Shown piece after piece: positions 1 to 7,841 of a DNA stretch of 64,000 nucleotides. Position numbers and translations under genes: made by a program. The DNA is taken from the IMG/VR virus record IMGVR_UViG_3300035682_000004, one strand, 5' to 3'. Every line of letters begins with the position of its first letter. The first letter of the stretch is position 1. The notes beneath the pieces were generated by a model. That model was not told where the DNA came from and made no database searches. It was given only the letters and a program-made list of their open reading frames with translations. This DNA is from a virus.

Positions 1-179
1 TTGGTGATAAATTTTCTTGGTATAATGATAAGTATAGAAGTGGTAAAAGGAGATTAAAATTTAGTTGGTTAAGTGATGAGGATAGAGAGAAAGTGTATAA
101 TATTTTAAAAGATAAAGGTTATGATGTAAGAAATTATTTTAATAATTTTGATAGATTAGTTGTTTATTTAAATGATTAA
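1..179 (+). CDS. Partial early hypothetical protein (5'-truncated; ...GDKFSWYNDKYRSGKRRLKF...VVYLND*)
   Basis: Open frame from nt 3 to TAA 177-179, read manually; followed by an early promoter. Confidence 0.7.
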   Translation, partial: GDKFSWYNDKYRSGKRRLKFSWLSDEDREKVYNILKDKGYDVRNYFNNFDRLVVYLND

Positions 180-184
180 AAATG

Positions 185-216
185 TTTGGAAAGTTAAATA
201 ATTTTTATTATATTTA
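185..216 (+). promoter_or_regulatory. Early host-RNAP-type promoter TTTG-N20-TATATTTA
   Basis: TTTG 185-188, TATATTTA 209-216; resembles the Bacteroidota -33 TTTG / -7 TAnnTTTG consensus. Confidence 0.8.
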
Positions 217-261
217 AAATGTTAAGAAAATAAATAAATTAAACCCTTTAAAAAAAAAGAT

Positions 262-678
262 ATGAAAAGATTAAGTAAATTTGAAGTAGATTGTTTAGTA
301 GATGTAGTAGAGAGTAAATTAATGAGAATTGAAAAAGAAAAACTTAAAAAAGAGTGTGGTGAAAAAGTTAAAGAATGGAATAAGGAATTAAAAGAAATTT
401 TAAGTGAAAAGAGGATATTGAGTGATAAACTTGATGAAAGAATTAAGGAAATTAATAAAGAGTTATTAGTTAATGATTGGAATGGTGTTAATGTTTATAA
501 TAATGATTGTTATAGTGTGAAAGGAGATATGGTGATGATTAATGAAAATAAGAGTTATTATGGTGTGATGGGTAATGGTTTAAGAAGTAAAATTAGTAAT
601 GAAATTGTTGTTAATAGTTTAAAAGGAAATGATATTGATAGTTTAATAGATAGTTTAATAGATAAGTTTAAAAGTTAA
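262..678 (+). CDS. Early hypothetical coiled-coil protein, nearly C-free gene
   Basis: 138-aa ORF after promoter and AAAGAT-ATG start; only 2 C in 417 nt. Confidence 0.85.
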   Translation: MKRLSKFEVDCLVDVVESKLMRIEKEKLKKECGEKVKEWNKELKEILSEKRILSDKLDERIKEINKELLVNDWNGVNVYNNDCYSVKGDMVMINENKSYYGVMGNGLRSKISNEIVVNSLKGNDIDSLIDSLIDKFKS

Positions 679-701
679 TTATTAAGGGAGGGTTAAATAT
701 G

Positions 702-733
702 TTTGGCCCTCCCATTAACCTTTATTATATTTA
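702..733 (+). promoter_or_regulatory. Early promoter overlapping the gggagggttaaa/tttggccctccc hairpin
   Basis: TTTG 702-705, 20-nt spacer, TATATTTA 726-733. Confidence 0.8.
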
Positions 734-752
734 GTTAAATAAGAAAAAAGAT

Positions 753-974
753 ATGAAAAAAGAAATGAAGTTTAAGATCGGTGATATGGTTAAACCTACA
801 AATACGGTTTATGGTAAAAGATTTATTGGTAAAATTTGTGATTGTTGGATGAATAAACCTGAAAACATCCAAATTAAAGATGGTGAAATTGTTTATGTAG
901 TAATACATGATAATTATAGAGGTCATATGTTAAGGGAAGTTGATATTAAAGAATCTGATTTGGTTGCTCTATAA
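753..974 (+). CDS. Small early protein, SH3/KOW-like start (MKFKIGDMVK)
   Basis: ORF with own promoter; FKIGDxV start is common in small phage beta-barrel proteins. Confidence 0.75.
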   Translation: MKKEMKFKIGDMVKPTNTVYGKRFIGKICDCWMNKPENIQIKDGEIVYVVIHDNYRGHMLREVDIKESDLVAL

Positions 975-1000
975 TTTATATTAAGGGAGGGTTAAATATG

Positions 1001-1032
1001 TTTGGCCCTTCCATTAATCTTTATTATATTTA
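1001..1032 (+). promoter_or_regulatory. Early promoter
   Basis: TTTG-N20-TATATTTA. Confidence 0.8.
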
Positions 1033-1073
1033 GTTATTAAGAAAATAAGTTAAACACTTTAAAAACATAAGAT

Positions 1074-1277
1074 ATGGCAAATATGAGTTATTGTAGGTTC
1101 AGAAATACTTACTTAGATTTAATTGATTGTTCTAATAATTTAAATGACAAAGATATGTCATTTGATGAAAAAATGGCTAAGAAGAATTTATTAGAATTGT
1201 GTAAGGAAATGATTGAAGATTATGAGTTTAATAATTTAGGTGAGTTAGAAGATGATTTTGATGAGGTTTGGAGTTAA
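1074..1277 (+). CDS. Small acidic early phage protein (MANMSYCRFRNT...)
   Basis: ORF after promoter and AAGAT-ATG. Confidence 0.8.
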   Translation: MANMSYCRFRNTYLDLIDCSNNLNDKDMSFDEKMAKKNLLELCKEMIEDYEFNNLGELEDDFDEVWS

Positions 1278-1282
1278 ATAGA

Positions 1283-1314
1283 TTTGGCCTTCGGGCCAAT
1301 CTTTATTATATTTA
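1283..1314 (+). promoter_or_regulatory. Early promoter with internal ttggcc-TTCG-ggccaa hairpin
   Basis: TTTG-N20-TATATTTA with a UUCG-capped stem. Confidence 0.8.
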
Positions 1315-1334
1315 AATATAAAGAAAAAAAAGAT

Positions 1335-1658
1335 ATGAAAAATCAATCGTATAAAATTATCTCTAAAGAAAATCATAAAAATATTTGTGATGCTTATTGT
1401 TTAGAATTAAATAATGAGACTTATAAAGGATTTAATATTCAAACTAAAGGATATTTACTTTATAATGAAGGAAAAACATTTGATTTAAGTAATAATTTAA
1501 TTAATAAGTATCTAAATTTTGATTTATGGTCAGAAATAAGAGATATTAATGGAGTATTCTTAAAAAGAATTGCAGGTTCTAATCAAGGACATTTAATTAA
1601 TAGTTCTATAAATAGAGTAAAAAAATATATAGATAATAATAGTCATAGATTAAAATAA
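1335..1658 (+). CDS. Early hypothetical protein (start corrected to ATG 1335)
   Basis: Track start 1284 lies inside the promoter; AAAGAT-ATG at 1335 is in frame. Confidence 0.75.
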   Translation: MKNQSYKIISKENHKNICDAYCLELNNETYKGFNIQTKGYLLYNEGKTFDLSNNLINKYLNFDLWSEIRDINGVFLKRIAGSNQGHLINSSINRVKKYIDNNSHRLK

Positions 1659-1659
1659 G

Positions 1660-1691
1660 TTTGGCCTCGCCATGAACTGATGTTATATTTA
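1660..1691 (+). promoter_or_regulatory. Early promoter
   Basis: TTTG-N20-TATATTTA. Confidence 0.8.
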
Positions 1692-1709
1692 GATATAAAG
1701 AAAAAAGAT

Positions 1710-1850
1710 ATGACAGTAGAAGAATTAATTGAAAAATTATCTAAAATTGAAGATAAAACAAAAGAAGTAATGCTTATAGGTGATACTAAAGAGTGGATAA
1801 ATCATAGGATTAAAGAAAAAGAGAATTGTATAATTTTATATAATAATTAA
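1710..1850 (+). CDS. Small early protein, 46 aa (MTVEELIEKLSKIEDK...)
   Basis: Read manually; promoter plus AAAGAT-ATG; below the ORF-track cutoff. Confidence 0.75.
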   Translation: MTVEELIEKLSKIEDKTKEVMLIGDTKEWINHRIKEKENCIILYNN

Positions 1851-1857
1851 ATAAGAT

Positions 1858-2034
1858 ATGAATAAATTAAAATTTGATTTTATGGATGATTTAATATTAA
1901 ATCAAGATCATGAAATTTTAGAAACTGTTATTAACTCTATATGTAAAGAGTTGGGTAAAGAAGGATTTGATAAAGGTGATATTAATAAATTTGTATTGGT
2001 TAAGGTTAAAGAATATTTGGCCTTGGTAAAATAA
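1858..2034 (+). CDS. Small early protein, 58 aa (MNKLKFDFMDDL...)
   Basis: Read manually; AAGAT-ATG start. Confidence 0.7.
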   Translation: MNKLKFDFMDDLILNQDHEILETVINSICKELGKEGFDKGDINKFVLVKVKEYLALVK

Positions 2035-2047
2035 GATGTTATATTTA
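2016..2047 (+). promoter_or_regulatory. Early promoter
   Basis: TTTG-N20-TATATTTA. Confidence 0.8.
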
Positions 2048-2087
2048 GGTATAAAGAAAATAAGTTAAACATTTAAAAAAAAAAGAT

Positions 2088-2273
2088 ATGGGAAGTACAG
2101 TATTTGCAGTTTCAGATTTTGAAGGATCATTTGAAGAATTAGTTCATATTGATAATATCAATATAATTGAGTATATTGAAGAAGGATATGATGGTGGTTT
2201 ACCAAGTGTTAAAGTAATGGATGATGGTGAAGAAGATACTTGGTTTTATATTGATTTAGTAGAAATTGATTAA
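2088..2273 (+). CDS. Small, highly acidic early protein (possible DNA mimic)
   Basis: 61 aa, D/E-rich with a single basic residue; own promoter. Confidence 0.7.
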   Translation: MGSTVFAVSDFEGSFEELVHIDNINIIEYIEEGYDGGLPSVKVMDDGEEDTWFYIDLVEID

Positions 2274-2277
2274 TTTG

Positions 2278-2309
2278 TTTGGAATCCCAATTAATTGATG
2301 TTATATTTA
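2278..2309 (+). promoter_or_regulatory. Early promoter
   Basis: TTTG-N20-TATATTTA. Confidence 0.8.
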
Positions 2310-2327
2310 GGTATAAGAAAAAAAGAT

Positions 2328-2576
2328 ATGATAAACGAAACAGAATTAAAATCAGGTTACTTCATTTATGGTAACAAAGGTAATGTGTGGAGTAACACAG
2401 CACACATTTACAAATCAGGTCAAGGTAACTTATGTGGTACACCAGCACTTGCAACTAACCATGCCAAGTTTAATGGAATTAAAGTGGCGGGTTGTGTAGA
2501 GTGTAGTAAGGAGTATAGTGAGTTAATGGAACATCAATATTGGATTGATAAAAAAGAAGATTTGATAGAAGGTTAA
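2328..2576 (+). CDS. Small early protein with putative Zn site (H..C..CxxC)
   Basis: AHIY...LCG...GCVEC; start corrected to AAAGAT-ATG 2328. Confidence 0.7.
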   Translation: MINETELKSGYFIYGNKGNVWSNTAHIYKSGQGNLCGTPALATNHAKFNGIKVAGCVECSKEYSELMEHQYWIDKKEDLIEG

Positions 2577-2581
2577 ACAGG

Positions 2582-2613
2582 TTTGGCCTTAGGGCCAAAC
2601 TTTATTATATTTA
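2582..2613 (+). promoter_or_regulatory. Early promoter with gtttggcc-ttag-ggccaaac hairpin
   Basis: TTTG-N20-TATATTTA. Confidence 0.8.
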
Positions 2614-2639
2614 ATTATTAAGAAATTAAAGAAAAAGAT

Positions 2640-2816
2640 ATGAAAAGAGATTATTTTCAACACCAGATTTGTTTATTAACTAAACCAAAACATGATTCAA
2701 AGTTATATAAACTTATAACTCAGATGACTGAAGATTTAAGAGAAAAAGGTGTTTGTAAGAAACAAATTAAAGAATATTTAATTTTAGAAGTTAAACAAAT
2801 TATTAGTGAAACATAA
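2640..2816 (+). CDS. Small early protein, 58 aa (MKRDYFQHQIC...)
   Basis: Read manually; promoter plus AAAGAT-ATG. Confidence 0.7.
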   Translation: MKRDYFQHQICLLTKPKHDSKLYKLITQMTEDLREKGVCKKQIKEYLILEVKQIISET

Positions 2817-2821
2817 ATAGG

Positions 2822-2853
2822 TTTGGCCCTCCGGGGTAAGGATGTTATATTTA
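2822..2853 (+). promoter_or_regulatory. Early promoter
   Basis: TTTG-N20-TATATTTA. Confidence 0.8.
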
Positions 2854-2879
2854 AGTATTAAGAAATTAAAGAAAAAGAT

Positions 2880-3764
2880 ATGAACCAAACACAAACTAAA
2901 AGACGCGGTAGACCGTCTAAAAAGAAGGTAGCGCAAAATGTCACATACACGCCATCGTTAATTGATTTCTCGGCTATAACTAAGTTAAATAACTTAAATG
3001 TCGATCCTAAAATGATGGAGACAATGAAGTCAGGTCTAGCATTAGATCACTTTGTAAGTTATGAGGGTGGAGTGCCGAGTGCTTCAAATATGATGATTAT
3101 AGGTGATCCGGGTGTAGGTAAAACAACATTGTTACTTGATCTATTAGCCGCGGTACAAAATAAAAATCGTAAGTGCTTATTCATATCAGGTGAGATGGGC
3201 CGTAAGCAAATGTTTAAATACACACAAAGGTTCCCACAGTTTGGTATAGTAGACACTTTATTTATGAGTGACTATATGAATCATAACACTAAGGATGTAA
3301 TTGAACAAGCGCTTAACATTGGTTATGATTTAGTTTTAATTGATTCCATCGCTGAAATTATTGATGGGGTTAGGGATGATAACAATTGGGATAGAAAAAT
3401 TGCCGAGTCATGGTTAGTAGATGTTTGTGTTAACAATAATAAAGGCGATAATAAAGGAAATAAGTACACATCGTTTCTACTGATTCAACAGGTTACTAAA
3501 GCGGGTGTGTTTGTGGGTTCGAATAAGCTGAAACACTTAACAGACGCAATGTTAGAAATGAGACGTGAGTCAGATAGAAATGGTGGTGGTACATATTTAA
3601 CATTTACTAAGAATAGAAATGGTGAGGCTGGGATGAGAATGAGTTTTCAATTAACAGGTACACAAATATATTACGGCACAATTGAAATTGATTCTGATGG
3701 ATCAGATGAGGAGTTGGAATTAGAAATAACCAACCCGGAGTATCAAAACATTATTTTTTCTTAA
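2880..3764 (+). CDS. RecA-superfamily ATPase, RadA/Sms-like core with N-terminal AT-hook
   Basis: Walker A GDPGVGKT, ISGE, Walker B LVLIDS, KHLTDA and KNRNG (cf. RadA EHxVD, KNRFG); KRRGRPSKK AT-hook. Confidence 0.8.
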   Translation: MNQTQTKRRGRPSKKKVAQNVTYTPSLIDFSAITKLNNLNVDPKMMETMKSGLALDHFVSYEGGVPSASNMMIIGDPGVGKTTLLLDLLAAVQNKNRKCLFISGEMGRKQMFKYTQRFPQFGIVDTLFMSDYMNHNTKDVIEQALNIGYDLVLIDSIAEIIDGVRDDNNWDRKIAESWLVDVCVNNNKGDNKGNKYTSFLLIQQVTKAGVFVGSNKLKHLTDAMLEMRRESDRNGGGTYLTFTKNRNGEAGMRMSFQLTGTQIYYGTIEIDSDGSDEELELEITNPEYQNIIFS

Positions 3765-3769
3765 TATCT

Positions 3770-3816
3770 GAGGTAACTGGTCCTGGCGCGTTTCATATCC
3801 GCCCAGGGCTAACCTC
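3770..3816 (+). terminator. GC-rich stem-loop after the ATPase gene
   Basis: gaggt..tggtcctgg / ccagggcta..acctc pairing. Confidence 0.5.
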
Positions 3817-3819
3817 TTG

Positions 3820-3851
3820 CTTGGCCTCCCGATCAATTGATGTTATATTTA
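3820..3851 (+). promoter_or_regulatory. Early promoter
   Basis: CTTG-N20-TATATTTA. Confidence 0.75.
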
Positions 3852-3869
3852 ATTATAAAGAAAAAAGAT

Positions 3870-4103
3870 ATGACAAACACAAACACTATCATTAAACAAT
3901 TTTTAAAATTAAATTTTCCTAAACAGTTTATTTATTTTAATAATCCAAAATCAATTAAAATTCAATTACCAAACACAATTTCTGAATCATTAATTAATTT
4001 TTTACAATCTCAAAATATTCAATTTAATTCAACACAACCTGAATTAATTCAATATCAATTAACATTTATTAAAAACATGACTCAAATCATAATTAATAAA
4101 TAA
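3870..4103 (+). CDS. Early hypothetical protein, nearly G-free gene (77 aa)
   Basis: AAAGAT-ATG at 3870 after promoter; 5 G in 234 nt. Confidence 0.7.
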   Translation: MTNTNTIIKQFLKLNFPKQFIYFNNPKSIKIQLPNTISESLINFLQSQNIQFNSTQPELIQYQLTFIKNMTQIIINK

Positions 4104-4107
4104 AAAA

Positions 4108-4139
4108 TTTGGCTTCCGGGTCAATTGATGTTATATTTA
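4108..4139 (+). promoter_or_regulatory. Early promoter
   Basis: TTTG-N20-TATATTTA. Confidence 0.8.
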
Positions 4140-4161
4140 GATATAATAAGAAAATAAAGAT

Positions 4162-4596
4162 ATGAAAAAAGAAATTATTATTGCTCAAAAAAACAAAGAT
4201 TTAATCATCACAAACTATAGTGGTGATAGTATGTGTGGTGAAGGTAAGTATAGAGTTATAACAAAATGTCAAGCCGGGTTTATGATTACAAGTGTTAAAC
4301 AAGCTAAAAGTGCGATTGATGTATTTCGTAGTTATAAAATTAAACATGTACATTCAATTGCCTATATAAAAGAAAATGATAAGTTGGGTAGGTATGATTT
4401 TATGGTTTACGCTCGGGTAGGTAAAAAAGTATGGATTGAGGAAGATTTATTACGTGAGTTAGAGATAGGTGATATTAATCAGAGTCTATATAATACAGCT
4501 TTATATTCTCAAGAACAATATAATAAAGTAAATGCTAAGTCATGGGCAAGTAAAGCATATGTGATGAATGGTTCGTTTGAATTTAGTGAGGTCTGA
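4162..4596 (+). CDS. Early hypothetical protein
   Basis: 144-aa ORF with own promoter. Confidence 0.8.
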   Translation: MKKEIIIAQKNKDLIITNYSGDSMCGEGKYRVITKCQAGFMITSVKQAKSAIDVFRSYKIKHVHSIAYIKENDKLGRYDFMVYARVGKKVWIEEDLLRELEIGDINQSLYNTALYSQEQYNKVNAKSWASKAYVMNGSFEFSEV

Positions 4597-4628
4597 TTTG
4601 GCCTCGCTAATAATTGATGTTATATTTA
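4597..4628 (+). promoter_or_regulatory. Early promoter
   Basis: TTTG-N20-TATATTTA. Confidence 0.8.
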
Positions 4629-4647
4629 GATATAATAAGAAACGGAT

Positions 4648-4782
4648 ATGAAAATATTAAACATTTTAGATGTACCAGGTAACGAGTTAGTAGAAGTGTT
4701 ATGGATCGATGATAATGAAATCGAGTTAATACCACTACAAGAGTTTATTAGTAAGTATGGAGTAGACAAATTAAATAAATAA
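4648..4782 (+). CDS. Small early protein, 44 aa (MKILNILDVPGNE...)
   Basis: Read manually; promoter plus GGAT-ATG. Confidence 0.65.
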   Translation: MKILNILDVPGNELVEVLWIDDNEIELIPLQEFISKYGVDKLNK

Positions 4783-4785
4783 GAT

Positions 4786-4980
4786 ATGAATATAATAAAA
4801 TTAGAAACAAGAATAACCACAACGTTTGAGGTGTATTATGAAAGGTATAATTACACAGTGGTTAAAGAACAGTTAAGTAAAAACACATTTAAGTACACTG
4901 TGATAGAAAGTTTTGATCAACCACTTGATGATGACTTTAAATCAAGGTTAGTGATGGAACTAGAAAGTGTAATTGGTTAA
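4786..4980 (+). CDS. Small early hypothetical protein
   Basis: ORF track; AAGAT-ATG. Confidence 0.7.
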   Translation: MNIIKLETRITTTFEVYYERYNYTVVKEQLSKNTFKYTVIESFDQPLDDDFKSRLVMELESVIG

Positions 4981-4982
4981 CC

Positions 4983-5138
4983 ATGAGAAAAACAATCACA
5001 CTATTAGCATTATTAATTGGATTACTAATGTTAACACAATCATGTTCATCACGTCGTTACTATAGACATCACAAGCCTAAACAAGCATGTAAGGGCGGTG
5101 ACTGGGGAGGCAATTTAATGGAAAAACGTATATGGTAA
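4983..5138 (+). CDS. Small lipoprotein, 51 aa (MRKTITLLALLIGLLMLTQSC...)
   Basis: Read manually; signal peptide II with lipobox Cys. Confidence 0.7.
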   Translation: MRKTITLLALLIGLLMLTQSCSSRRYYRHHKPKQACKGGDWGGNLMEKRIW

Positions 5139-5142
5139 TTTG

Positions 5143-5174
5143 TTTGGCTCACCACAATTAGTTTATTATATTTA
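5143..5174 (+). promoter_or_regulatory. Early promoter
   Basis: TTTG-N20-TATATTTA. Confidence 0.8.
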
Positions 5175-5193
5175 AGTATAATAAGAAACGGAT

Positions 5194-5379
5194 ATGAAAA
5201 AAGAACACTTAATAAACAACACCTACCAAGTAGTAGATAATGATGATAATGTATTATTCCAAGGTTCGGAATCGGAATGTAATGAATATATCATGGACCA
5301 AGGTATGGAGAATTTATTAAACCGTATTAATAATAATCCAGAATTATTAGATGTGTTCAAACGATTAAATGATAGATAG
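5194..5379 (+). CDS. Small early hypothetical protein
   Basis: ORF track; own promoter. Confidence 0.75.
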   Translation: MKKEHLINNTYQVVDNDDNVLFQGSESECNEYIMDQGMENLLNRINNNPELLDVFKRLNDR

Positions 5380-5380
5380 G

Positions 5381-5412
5381 TTTGGCTTACCAGGATTAGT
5401 TTATTATATTTA
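5381..5412 (+). promoter_or_regulatory. Early promoter
   Basis: TTTG-N20-TATATTTA. Confidence 0.8.
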
Positions 5413-5434
5413 ATTATAATAAGAAAATAAAGAT

Positions 5435-5590
5435 ATGAACATCGAAAAAACAAAATTAGACATTATTAAAAACACATTAACAGCAGTATTAGAATCTGAT
5501 GTAATAGTAGATAATAATAATTCAGATGCATTTAAATTTGGTTACTTAAAAGGTACCATTAATACAATAATTGAGTTTATAAACGAATAA
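5435..5590 (+). CDS. Small early protein, 51 aa (MNIEKTKLDII...AFKFGYLKGTI...)
   Basis: Read manually; promoter plus AAAGAT-ATG. Confidence 0.7.
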   Translation: MNIEKTKLDIIKNTLTAVLESDVIVDNNNSDAFKFGYLKGTINTIIEFINE

Positions 5591-5595
5591 CAAAT

Positions 5596-5683
5596 AGTCA
5601 AGTGGTGGAATGGTTACCACGGTGGAGGTAGATGCAGCAATGTAATCCCAAAACAGAAACAGGTTCGAATCCTGTCCTGACTA
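5596..5683 (+). ncRNA. tRNA-like RNA 1 lacking a canonical anticodon arm
   Basis: Acceptor AGTCAAG/CCTGACT-A, D-arm GTGG/CCAC, T-arm ACAGG-TTCGAAT-CCTGT; the middle is a GCAA-capped hairpin. Confidence 0.7.
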
Positions 5684-5998
5684 CGAAGAGATAACAATCT
5701 TCCGATATGGCATCCATTCCGTTAATATGGAGAACTTGTTTGGCGGCTCGGAAAGACGAGCATTTATATTTAAAACATTAATCAACATGATAACATTTTT
5801 ATTAGTAGTAGCAATACTATATTTAGCCTCAATTAACAATAACACTAAACACTAAAACCGCAACAACATGTCAGACATCGGAATCGACTTTAGCATCACG
5901 TTAATACTTACTATGGTAGTATTGGTGGTTGGAACAGAATTAATTGACCGTTATAAACAACACAGACGGGTTAAATAATATTTCATATCATATCTTAT

Positions 5999-6030
5999 GG
6001 GGGTCTGGATTTCTAGATCCCCTTTCTTTT
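5999..6030 (+). terminator. Intrinsic terminator closing the early array
   Basis: gggggtctgg-attt-ctagatcccc followed by tttctttt. Confidence 0.75.
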
Positions 6031-6073
6031 GTCTTGTGTGGGTTACATCCCCTATCTGTTTGCGGTATATATA

Positions 6074-6270
6074 CGGTATATGTACGGAGGTAATGCGGTG
6101 GAAATGCGTGCGTTGTTATCCATCGATGCGTGGTATGTGGTATAGTATAAGGGGAATGTAAAAACAGCAAGTAAACGTATACTGCGCGCGGAGCGTATAT
6201 ATTGATATACTACCACTACCTACCATACCACTAACACGCATTAACACCGCTATACTCCGCCCATATCCCG
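6074..6270. repeat. Long imperfect inverted repeat in a non-coding, GC-richer block
   Basis: 6074-6110 pairs with 6235-6270 and 6130-6149 pairs with 6206-6231; G-rich left arm, C-rich right arm. Confidence 0.75.
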
Positions 6271-6408
6271 GCTATAAACGACGAACGATTGTAAAATGCA
6301 TAATGCGTAATTCCATATAGCCCTTTTGGTATAACCGGTTAAAGGCCGGGAACAACTTAGAAGTACAATTTTTCACATCGATGCAAATATATACCTATAT
6401 ACCTTAAG

Positions 6409-6440: not shown

Positions 6441-6486
6441 AGATGTTAAAAAAGATATAAGTTAAACAATTTAAAAAATAAAGGTT

Positions 6487-7287
6487 ATGCTAGACATTAA
6501 AAACATGGATTTCATCGACAAGTCGGAAATCAAAACAAGAGCAAATTCAATTTTCACAACTACCGGTTCACCTAGTACTTCAGATAAGTACGCTCACATC
6601 TCAACCGAAAAAATTATTGACGATATGGAGTTATTAGGATGGGGTGTGGTTGATGCAAAACAAGTTAAAGCGCGTAAGAGTGTAGGATATCAAAAACACT
6701 TAGTTGTGTTTAGAAATCCAGAAATTGTAATTGATGGGGTAGATGGTGACACAGTTTTCCCTCAAATATTACTTACCAATTCACATGACGGTAAAAATGC
6801 GTTTACATTCACAGCCGGTTTATTTAGAATGATTTGTGAAAATGGTTTAGTGGTTTGTAATCAAGAATTCGAGAATCTAAAAATTAGACACTACGGATAC
6901 GATTTTGAGGAACTAGAAAAAACCATTAATACAATGGTAGAAAAGTTACCGTTAACTGTTGAATCAATGAACCGCTTTAAAACCACGGTTTTGAATTCAA
7001 ACCAAATGCTTGATTTTGCTAAACGCGCATTGAATTCCAGATTTACTGATAGTGAATTAGAGCATATCACCATCGATTTAAATGACTTATTAACTCCGTC
7101 ACGTGAGGAAGATAAGGGTAACGACATGTGGTCAGTGTTTAATACGGTTCAGGAAAAATTAACACACGGGTTATTTAATTACGCTTATGGTTCTAAAAAT
7201 CGTAAGGCACGTAAAATTAAGAACTTCAATAAGGACATGGAGTTAAACAATAAGTTGTACCAATTAGCAAACGAATTCGTCAATTAA
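6487..7287 (+). CDS. DUF932/DUF945-family protein
   Basis: ILLTNSHDG, AGLFRMICENGL, WSVFNTVQE motifs. Confidence 0.85.
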   Translation: MLDIKNMDFIDKSEIKTRANSIFTTTGSPSTSDKYAHISTEKIIDDMELLGWGVVDAKQVKARKSVGYQKHLVVFRNPEIVIDGVDGDTVFPQILLTNSHDGKNAFTFTAGLFRMICENGLVVCNQEFENLKIRHYGYDFEELEKTINTMVEKLPLTVESMNRFKTTVLNSNQMLDFAKRALNSRFTDSELEHITIDLNDLLTPSREEDKGNDMWSVFNTVQEKLTHGLFNYAYGSKNRKARKIKNFNKDMELNNKLYQLANEFVN

Positions 7288-7349: not shown

Positions 7350-7841
7350 ATGGGAAGTTATAAAACCAATAAACAAGTATTAAAAAAATTAACTGTTGAA
7401 GAAGCACAAGCCTTTATTCCGGTTAGTATGGAAAATTCTGATGAATTAGAAAATGCTTATTTTTATACTATGGTTCCTATGGGTAATGGTTGGGATGAAA
7501 TAAATTATTATACTAACCGAAATACTCAAACTTGGAGACAAGGTAAACATAATAGTTGGATTTATATTTTATCTAATAAAACAATGCCTGGCCTTTTTAA
7601 AATTGGTCATACAACAAAACATCCTGATGAACGGGCAAGAGAAATTTCACGATCAACTGGTGTTCCAATTCCGTTTGAAGTTGAATGGGCGTTTGACTGT
7701 TTTGATTCTGATAGATTAGAAGCAGAAATTCATAGAGCATTAGATTCGTTTAGGTATTCATCAAATAAAGAATTTTTTGAAATATCTTTAAATGAAGCAA
7801 AAGAAACTATAAGGAAACTTGGCTCTGCGTATAGGAGTTAG
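7350..7841 (+). CDS. GIY-YIG-like T5orf172-domain protein
   Basis: WIYILSN..MPGLFKIGHT..P.ERA..STGVP.PF..LE.EIH..KEFF. Confidence 0.85.
   Translation: MGSYKTNKQVLKKLTVEEAQAFIPVSMENSDELENAYFYTMVPMGNGWDEINYYTNRNTQTWRQGKHNSWIYILSNKTMPGLFKIGHTTKHPDERAREISRSTGVPIPFEVEWAFDCFDSDRLEAEIHRALDSFRYSSNKEFFEISLNEAKETIRKLGSAYRS

Follow-up and report, generated by a model that had tools for sequence, protein, structure and literature searches.

A two-gene phage unit kept almost free of cytosine on its sense strand

Why would a phage write two neighbouring genes almost without cytosine and give up five amino acids in their products? The question is raised by the first 700 nt of the window (by which we mean the whole 64-kb stretch of DNA analysed). 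The sense strand of these 700 nt contains 307 A, 241 T, 146 G and only 6 C, at positions 16, 244-246, 343 and 430, where ~91 C would be expected at the 13.0% C of the whole window. The original prediction had counted 6 C in nt 1-700 and 2 C in the 417-nt gene at 262-678, and had noted that Ala, Pro, Thr, Gln and His are missing from the product of this gene (gene D) and from that of the partial gene in front of it (gene C). Our recount gave the same two numbers, and the five residues were absent from both products.

Base composition and selection on the sense strand

The two longest C-free runs of the 64 kb begin in this stretch (276 nt at 431-706 and 227 nt at 17-243), and the third longest measures 110 nt. 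We estimated the chance of a 276-nt C-free run in 64 kb at ~1e-12 (0.87^276 x 64,000); the depletion of C in 1-700 cannot be chance. The region is composed of 44% A, 34% T and 21% G, compared with 39%, 31% and 16% in the whole window, and G reaches 21-30% in C-free genes. The mean C content per ORF is 12.3% (sd 3.4%, n = 90 called ORFs), and that of gene D is 0.5%. Purines make up 65% of the region, with G above C; the entire window is also purine-rich with more G than C, and the GC skew drops gradually from 0.89 at 1-500 to ~0.04 across the first 6 kb. A sequencing artefact had been named as one way in which the observation might fail, but the identical C-free sequence was found in independent assemblies from many lake samples, so it is not an artefact of this kind.

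The codons of gene D indicate at which level the depletion is set. With the codon usage of 31 long window genes applied to its own amino-acid sequence, synonymous choice should give ~21 C-containing codons, and the gene has 2 (log10 P for none ~-13), which agrees with the earlier view that the reduced alphabet is imposed on the nucleotides. All Ser codons of gene D are AGT, compared with 74% C-containing Ser codons elsewhere, and its product has 0 A/P/T/Q/H residues where 29 would be expected. Among seven orthologues, 6 of the 165 variable sites of gene D involve C, compared with 54 of 103 in the RecA-like gene that lies 2 kb further downstream in these genomes. Variable positions fall on all three codon sites (59 first, 50 second and 56 third, in 138 codons), and dN/dS is ~0.7-1.3 for gene D versus 0.02-0.07 for the RecA-like gene; gene D evolves fast.

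In relatives L002-L005, C is absent from runs of 671-675 nt that take in the whole of gene D, its leader, the internal promoter and the greater part of gene C. A distant relative, L038, has a C-free run of 1,527 nt that includes three genes with their promoters; its limits are the TTTG of the first promoter and the descending terminator arm, and C is frequent in the next gene. Since the C-free runs extend from promoter to terminator across genes, the transcription unit is the unit of selection. These comparisons show that purifying selection excludes C from the sense strand all the way from promoter to ascending hairpin arm, at the cost of five amino acids.

The same data bear on whether the deficit could come from faulty assembly or from a mutation bias at this locus, for instance C deamination coupled to transcription. 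Deamination can remove C from sense strands that are highly transcribed. However, T is not enriched here and A and G have taken the place of the lost C, so the pattern is not one of C-to-T decay. The change from no C to frequent C at a hairpin of L038 is sharp, and relative L006 carries a chimeric gene D (89-526) in which an unrelated N-terminal part of 45 residues with ordinary C adjoins a C-free remainder. Moreover, the 138-codon ORF stays free of stops, where ~13% of random codons of such composition would be stops, and many independent assemblies agree. We consider mutation bias or artefact scarcely credible.

We also analyzed the context of C in 49 partly depleted genes (2.5-7% C) and found equal loss across dinucleotides. 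The O/E values of C before A, T and C were 1.15, 1.04 and 1.66, similar to those in ordinary genes, which argues that the target is the base and not a motif. A short-motif RNase such as MazF was rejected as the cause on these grounds. An apparent pattern among the residual C, with CT tolerated and CA purged, was likewise dropped; its counts were dominated by a few orthologous sites, and the larger, partly depleted class had no context effect.

The two-gene unit in an array of early cassettes

The first 700 nt of the window are the last 700 nt of a ~0.9-kb two-gene early unit, composed of gene C (73 aa) and gene D (138 aa), both on the plus strand. Position 1 is no natural boundary and cuts through gene C, of which the 3' part lies at 1-179; the partial ORF 3-179 represents the final 58 of 73 codons, and its single C belongs to a conserved TCT Ser codon at position 16. 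The gene is complete in relatives, for example at 9447-9226 of L001 (minus strand) and 3700-3921 of L014, and shares 92-97% identity with them. An internal early promoter follows at 185-216 on the plus strand (TTTGGAAAG), with a TTTG box at 185-188, a 20-nt spacer and TATATTTA at 209-216; its boxes resemble the Bacteroidota promoter consensus. As the original prediction had remarked, it is without the GGCC found at its neighbours, where this forms a stem-loop. There is no stem-loop between gene C and gene D and therefore no terminator, so that the two genes form one unit.

The leader of gene D contains a mini-palindrome (TTAAA-CCC-TTTAA, 239-251, plus strand) that holds 3 of the 6 C and is C-free in L002-L005. 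A conserved leader element of the form (G)TTAAAC-N-TTTAAAAA was found in several cassettes (236-251, 1049-1062, 2064-2076 and 6461-6473); it makes a 5-bp A/T mini-hairpin, and the only C of the leader lie in its loop. Gene D occupies 262-678 on the plus strand (417 nt, 138 aa), and its 2 C belong to CTT Leu codons at 343 and 430. The unit is closed by a stem-loop at 686-713 on the plus strand, with GGGAGGG (686-692) and CCCTCCC (707-713) as its arms, and C reappears exactly at the descending arm. The loop bears the TTTG box of the next cassette's promoter, giving a composite of the PeSL (promoter-early/stem-loop) type, and the same arrangement occurs in L002 and L038.

The gene D product is predicted to consist of one 66-residue helix and a small C-terminal helical domain, and it had no match among Pfam, PHROG or PDB folds. 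No function could be assigned to gene C or gene D with Pfam, PHROGs, the ESM Atlas or a PDB fold search. Neither megablast of 1-3000 nor tblastn of gene D found a match in cultured phages.

The C-poor block extends upstream in relatives by a further ~0.45 kb (L014/L015) to ~0.8 kb (L001), behind ordinary genes. In L001 and L014, two small, moderately C-poor genes lie 5' of gene C, preceded by a G+C-rich spacer and a terminator, and L014 carries 3.1 kb of ordinary same-strand genes 5' of the C-poor block, spacer and terminator. The spacer is non-coding (L001 10420-10300, minus strand; L014 ~2890-3110) and contains a repeated GGGGGATCGCCG motif just 5' of the first early promoter; it comes after the terminator and a small helix-turn-helix-like gene. 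It might have a regulatory function or serve as an origin, marking where the early array starts.

The window belongs to an AT-rich (29% G+C) myovirus, and all its genes lie on one strand. Pfam searches identified a T4-type portal (gp20; Portal_T4, 1.5e-64) and a large terminase (Terminase_6N, 1.9e-11). The nearest cultured relative is Flavobacterium phage vB_FspM_immuto (160 kb; hereafter immuto), with which it shares 61% identity in the portal. The phage is a T4-like, Immutovirus-related Flavobacterium phage. The order early array, baseplate, terminase is common to the window and immuto. DUF932 (6487-7287) and T5orf172 (7350-7841) genes come after the early array, as they do in immuto (63189-64007 and 75473-76105).

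One-gene cassettes make up the first 6.4 kb; in each, a TTTG-N20-TATATTTA promoter is followed by an A-rich leader, devoid of a Shine-Dalgarno sequence, and a small ORF. In most cassettes a G/C stem-loop overlaps the TTTG box of the promoter, and the form TTTGG(CC)..N..TATATTTA with an embedded hairpin occurs in 11-15 copies between 689 and 6454. Six further one-gene early cassettes at 753-2273 (plus strand) are partly depleted, with 3.5-6.8% C compared with the gene mean of 12.3%. BLAST comparisons of L001 and L014-L016 with the window showed that cassettes are re-ordered, inserted, duplicated and replaced among relatives whose backbones are 93-98% identical. In L038 the gene pair is found 4.7 kb 3' of the RecA-like gene and not on its upstream side. 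The comparisons show that the C-free state travels with the cassette wherever it is moved.

Cassettes of this kind have been described in T4-type phages as PeSL cassettes (Arbiol et al. 2010, PMC2839356; Comeau et al. 2014, PMC4122927). Both arrays are made of small ORFs behind a composite of stem-loop and early promoter, and in both single cassettes are shuffled between relatives. The present array differs in that its promoter boxes are of the Bacteroidota type (TTTG-N20-TATATTTA), and in that two or three cassettes have lost their internal stem-loops and make up one C-free unit. We found no description of a base-free cassette in the PeSL literature searched.

Other features of the array were recorded as well. 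A G-poor early gene at 3870-4103 (plus strand) has 3% G and is conserved in L002, L003, L006, L013-L015 and L026; N, Q, I, F, K and T are abundant in its 77-aa product. It was considered as a mirror case and given little weight; 1 G-containing codon was found where 3.5 were expected, its synonymous sites do not show selection against G, and it encodes a conserved protein of odd composition. The RecA-like ATPase has AT-hook-like (K/R)GRP motifs at its N-terminus (window 2880-2930), and such motifs are also present in small basic proteins 5' of the early array in relatives (L014 2347-2508; L046 106-411). Near-identical DNA over window 1-4200 was recovered from lake water in at least 14 metagenome runs (2020 and 2024), so that the phage is abundant and persistent. 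A freshwater RNA library contained a relative's contigs over 54-676, a weak hint of expression of the unit, since DNA carry-over is possible and such contigs carry no information on transcript ends, strand or level; uncovered positions are equally uninformative. Freshwater metatranscriptome libraries also contained relatives' contigs over several early cassettes.

Restriction, relatives and a possible modification of the template

The original prediction explained the missing C as a generic anti-restriction design for first-entering DNA, on the argument that a strand without C has no G/C-containing palindromes. Phages of the T7 and T5 type avoid restriction sites in early-entering DNA, and the likeness is that the stretch carries early genes and has no G/C-containing 4- or 6-bp palindromes in 1-700. 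Here, however, the location is not terminal. The unit is internal in every assembly, behind the 3.1 kb of ordinary genes in L014, and its position varies, as in L038; in the records of the complete relatives G004 and immuto, a C-poor gene lies 25 kb and 68 kb inside. From what is typical of the family, the T4-type portal and terminase would mean headful packaging without a fixed end.

Nor is there general site avoidance. The O/E values of 4-mer palindromes across the window were 0.65-1.40, and that of GGCC was 1.39. GGCC stem-loops flank the unit, recur every ~300 bp in the array and sit in the adjoining promoters, and 13 GGCC sites lie in 701-6400. Non-palindromic sites remain, and ~1 kb of site-free DNA would be too little to protect a genome of ~160 kb, a size estimated from the cultured relative. 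Because the unit is internal, variable in position and flanked by GGCC, and because palindromes are not avoided, the anti-restriction reading is unsupported, and we consider it very improbable.

The original prediction had asked whether orthologues located elsewhere in related phages regain the five residues, and they do. A profile search of 1.84 billion representatives gave 76 relatives of gene D, and profile scans of IMG/VR gave only short or already found contigs. The A/P/T/Q/H content of 66 near-full-length members was bimodal: 39 had less than 4.5%, and 24, among them members in other phages, had 9-23%. Such homologues also speak against an anti-restriction design. In the sample series of the window, an equally AT-rich T4-like contig (L044) carries a gene D homologue of ordinary composition. 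Judged from these homologues and from the chimeric gene D of L006, the gene D protein is excluded as the cause of the C-free state. On a quick tree the C-free and ordinary states were clustered, with at least 2-3 switches on well-supported branches, for example between P0064 (2% A/P/T/Q/H) and its neighbour P0090 (11%); as such a tree is subject to compositional attraction, we used it only to say that the states are clustered with some switches. Tandem gene D paralogues (131-132 aa and 138 aa), both C-free, occur in L005 (2079-2990), L007 (314-1225) and L016 (1775-2683).

A C-free message means a G-free template, which suggests a second explanation. If G in the phage DNA were replaced by a 7-deazaguanine (DpdA/preQ0), the host polymerase would never meet the modified base while reading such a unit in freshly injected DNA that is modified throughout. 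This would account for a base rather than a motif as the target, and for early genes being the ones affected. Among the complete relatives, immuto (which encodes QueC, QueD, QueE, QueF, FolE and DpdA) and G004 (DpdA and QueC) each have one C-poor early gene, and G005 is without DpdA, QueC and a C-poor gene, having no gene below 2.5% C. However, G007, G009 and G010 are DpdA-positive and their contigs include the early array, and they have no ORF below 7% C; in this comparison of seven genomes, DpdA therefore does not appear to impose the trait. The 64-kb window itself contains no DpdA/preQ0 homologue. Furthermore, only 1-5 cassettes are C-free among many early ones, and 7-deaza substitution leaves Watson-Crick pairing intact and is generally read by polymerases. 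Avoidance of G in the template is accordingly unlikely in our judgement.

Possible agents acting on cytosine in the message

The strand-specific composition could also be the extreme form of a G>C and purine bias that shields sense transcripts from Rho when ribosomes lag, which is plausible in Bacteroidota, without Shine-Dalgarno sequences, as long as the phage does not yet control the cell. The RNA targeted by Rho is rich in C and T and poor in G, and in Bacillus subtilis the composition of sense strands is shaped by the avoidance of Rho (Dierksheide et al. 2026, PMC13323073). Both biases are strand-specific and tied to transcription, affect codon and amino-acid usage and disfavour C. The purine-rich, G>C composition of the whole window, the gradual fall of its GC skew over 6 kb and the high G content of the C-free genes are consistent with this explanation. 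The published bias (PMC13323073), however, is genome-wide and mild (54% purine), whereas here one base is excluded absolutely from 1-5 genes in some phage lineages. Evasion of Rho needs C below G and not zero C, and the loss of five amino acids is not obviously justified by it. TC, part of the YC ligand of Rho, is not preferentially lost (O/E 1.12 in partly depleted versus 0.92 in ordinary genes), relatives whose hosts presumably bear Rho show no depletion, and the cassettes are short and each have their own promoter. We regard Rho evasion as a rather remote explanation.

Unstructured mRNA was one of two alternatives that the original prediction had named besides restriction, the other being a C-specific agent, and both are still live. 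Without C there are no G:C pairs, and an open message could be translated at once without a Shine-Dalgarno sequence. Prediction of the folding energy gave -0.11 kcal/mol per nt for the unit and -0.18 to -0.24 for ordinary genes, and the leaders are A-rich and without Shine-Dalgarno sequences. The G-poor gene at 3870-4103 would obey the same logic, but it is without evident nucleotide-level selection. Initiation requires openness only near the start codon, predicted pairing through G:U and A:U still involves 54-57%, and purging single C over 1.5 kb seems out of proportion to the benefit. Selection for structure-free mRNA is therefore improbable as the explanation.

We prefer the C-specific agent and infer, with a probability of about 0.4, that C-free first-line messages are immune to a putative agent acting on C in RNA synthesis or in RNA. 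The ~0.9-kb unit of gene C and gene D would be an immediate-early unit in a hyperplastic array of promoter/stem-loop cassettes, read by the host RNA polymerase from Bacteroidota-type promoters. The selected property would be one of the message or of its synthesis, and RNA without C would be completed and intact where C is the vulnerable letter. The putative host factor might provide chain-terminating CTP analogues (viperin-type ddhCTP), starve the cell of CTP, or cut or mark RNA at C. Under such a block a few fast-evolving first-line phage proteins, probably with counter-defence roles, could still be made. Within the transcript, C would be confined to the 3' terminator arm, downstream of everything that codes for protein, and a block there should be harmless.

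A C-directed block fits a target that is a base and not a motif, strand-specific, confined to the domain from promoter to terminator, and patchy by lineage and cassette; the patchiness points to a host-specific rather than a universal agent. The arms-race-like fast evolution and the tandem paralogues of gene D fit as well. That an antidote must itself be immune is an assumption of this reading. Neighbouring early genes are also partly C-depleted, however, and a general pressure on early transcription, by Rho or a template effect, would also explain that. A narrower version, in which the three-letter messages are a counter-defence, transcribed to completion and intact while the host poisons or starves CTP (for example by viperin-type ddhCTP) or attacks C in RNA, with gene C and gene D as inhibitors of that defence, is doubtful.

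Two known systems resemble the proposed block. ACA-less mRNAs resist the mRNA interferase MazF, and the common logic is that a message needed while an RNA-directed agent is active has no target of that agent. In contrast to MazF, the target here would be every C and not a 3-5-nt motif, and the depletion is not confined to a short motif. Synthetic C-less and G-less cassettes are transcribed in vitro without the corresponding NTP, and they share with the phage unit the absence of one base from the promoter to a defined end, in L038 exactly from promoter to terminator. The phage unit differs in that it occurs in nature, encodes proteins, evolves and is under selection.

The feature is real, under selection and explained by no known system. 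Full-text literature searches for cytosine-free phage genes and CTP-directed anti-phage defences gave no published description of natural cytosine-free genes. New here are the bimodality of the gene D family, the exact promoter-to-terminator domain in L038, the lack of a dinucleotide context effect, the DpdA-positive relatives without depletion and the cultured carrier immuto. Genes that code with three bases and 15 amino acids and are kept so by selection would amount to a novel type of coding-sequence constraint, and codon bias, site avoidance and Rho-linked purine bias are all far weaker. The constraint implies an agent in infected flavobacteria that would act on each C of the message or each G of the template; its discovery would uncover either a novel defence of the host or a price paid for hypermodified phage DNA. 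Composition alone would also flag immediate-early and probably counter-defence genes.

Because a cultured carrier exists, immuto on Flavobacterium sp. LMO8, the question can be tested directly. The C-poor early gene of immuto, immuto26A_128 (MW353175.1 68330-68686; L048 18330-18686), contains 1.4% C and encodes 118 aa. It has a hairpin-less promoter, and its product belongs to a protein family distinct from those of gene C and gene D.
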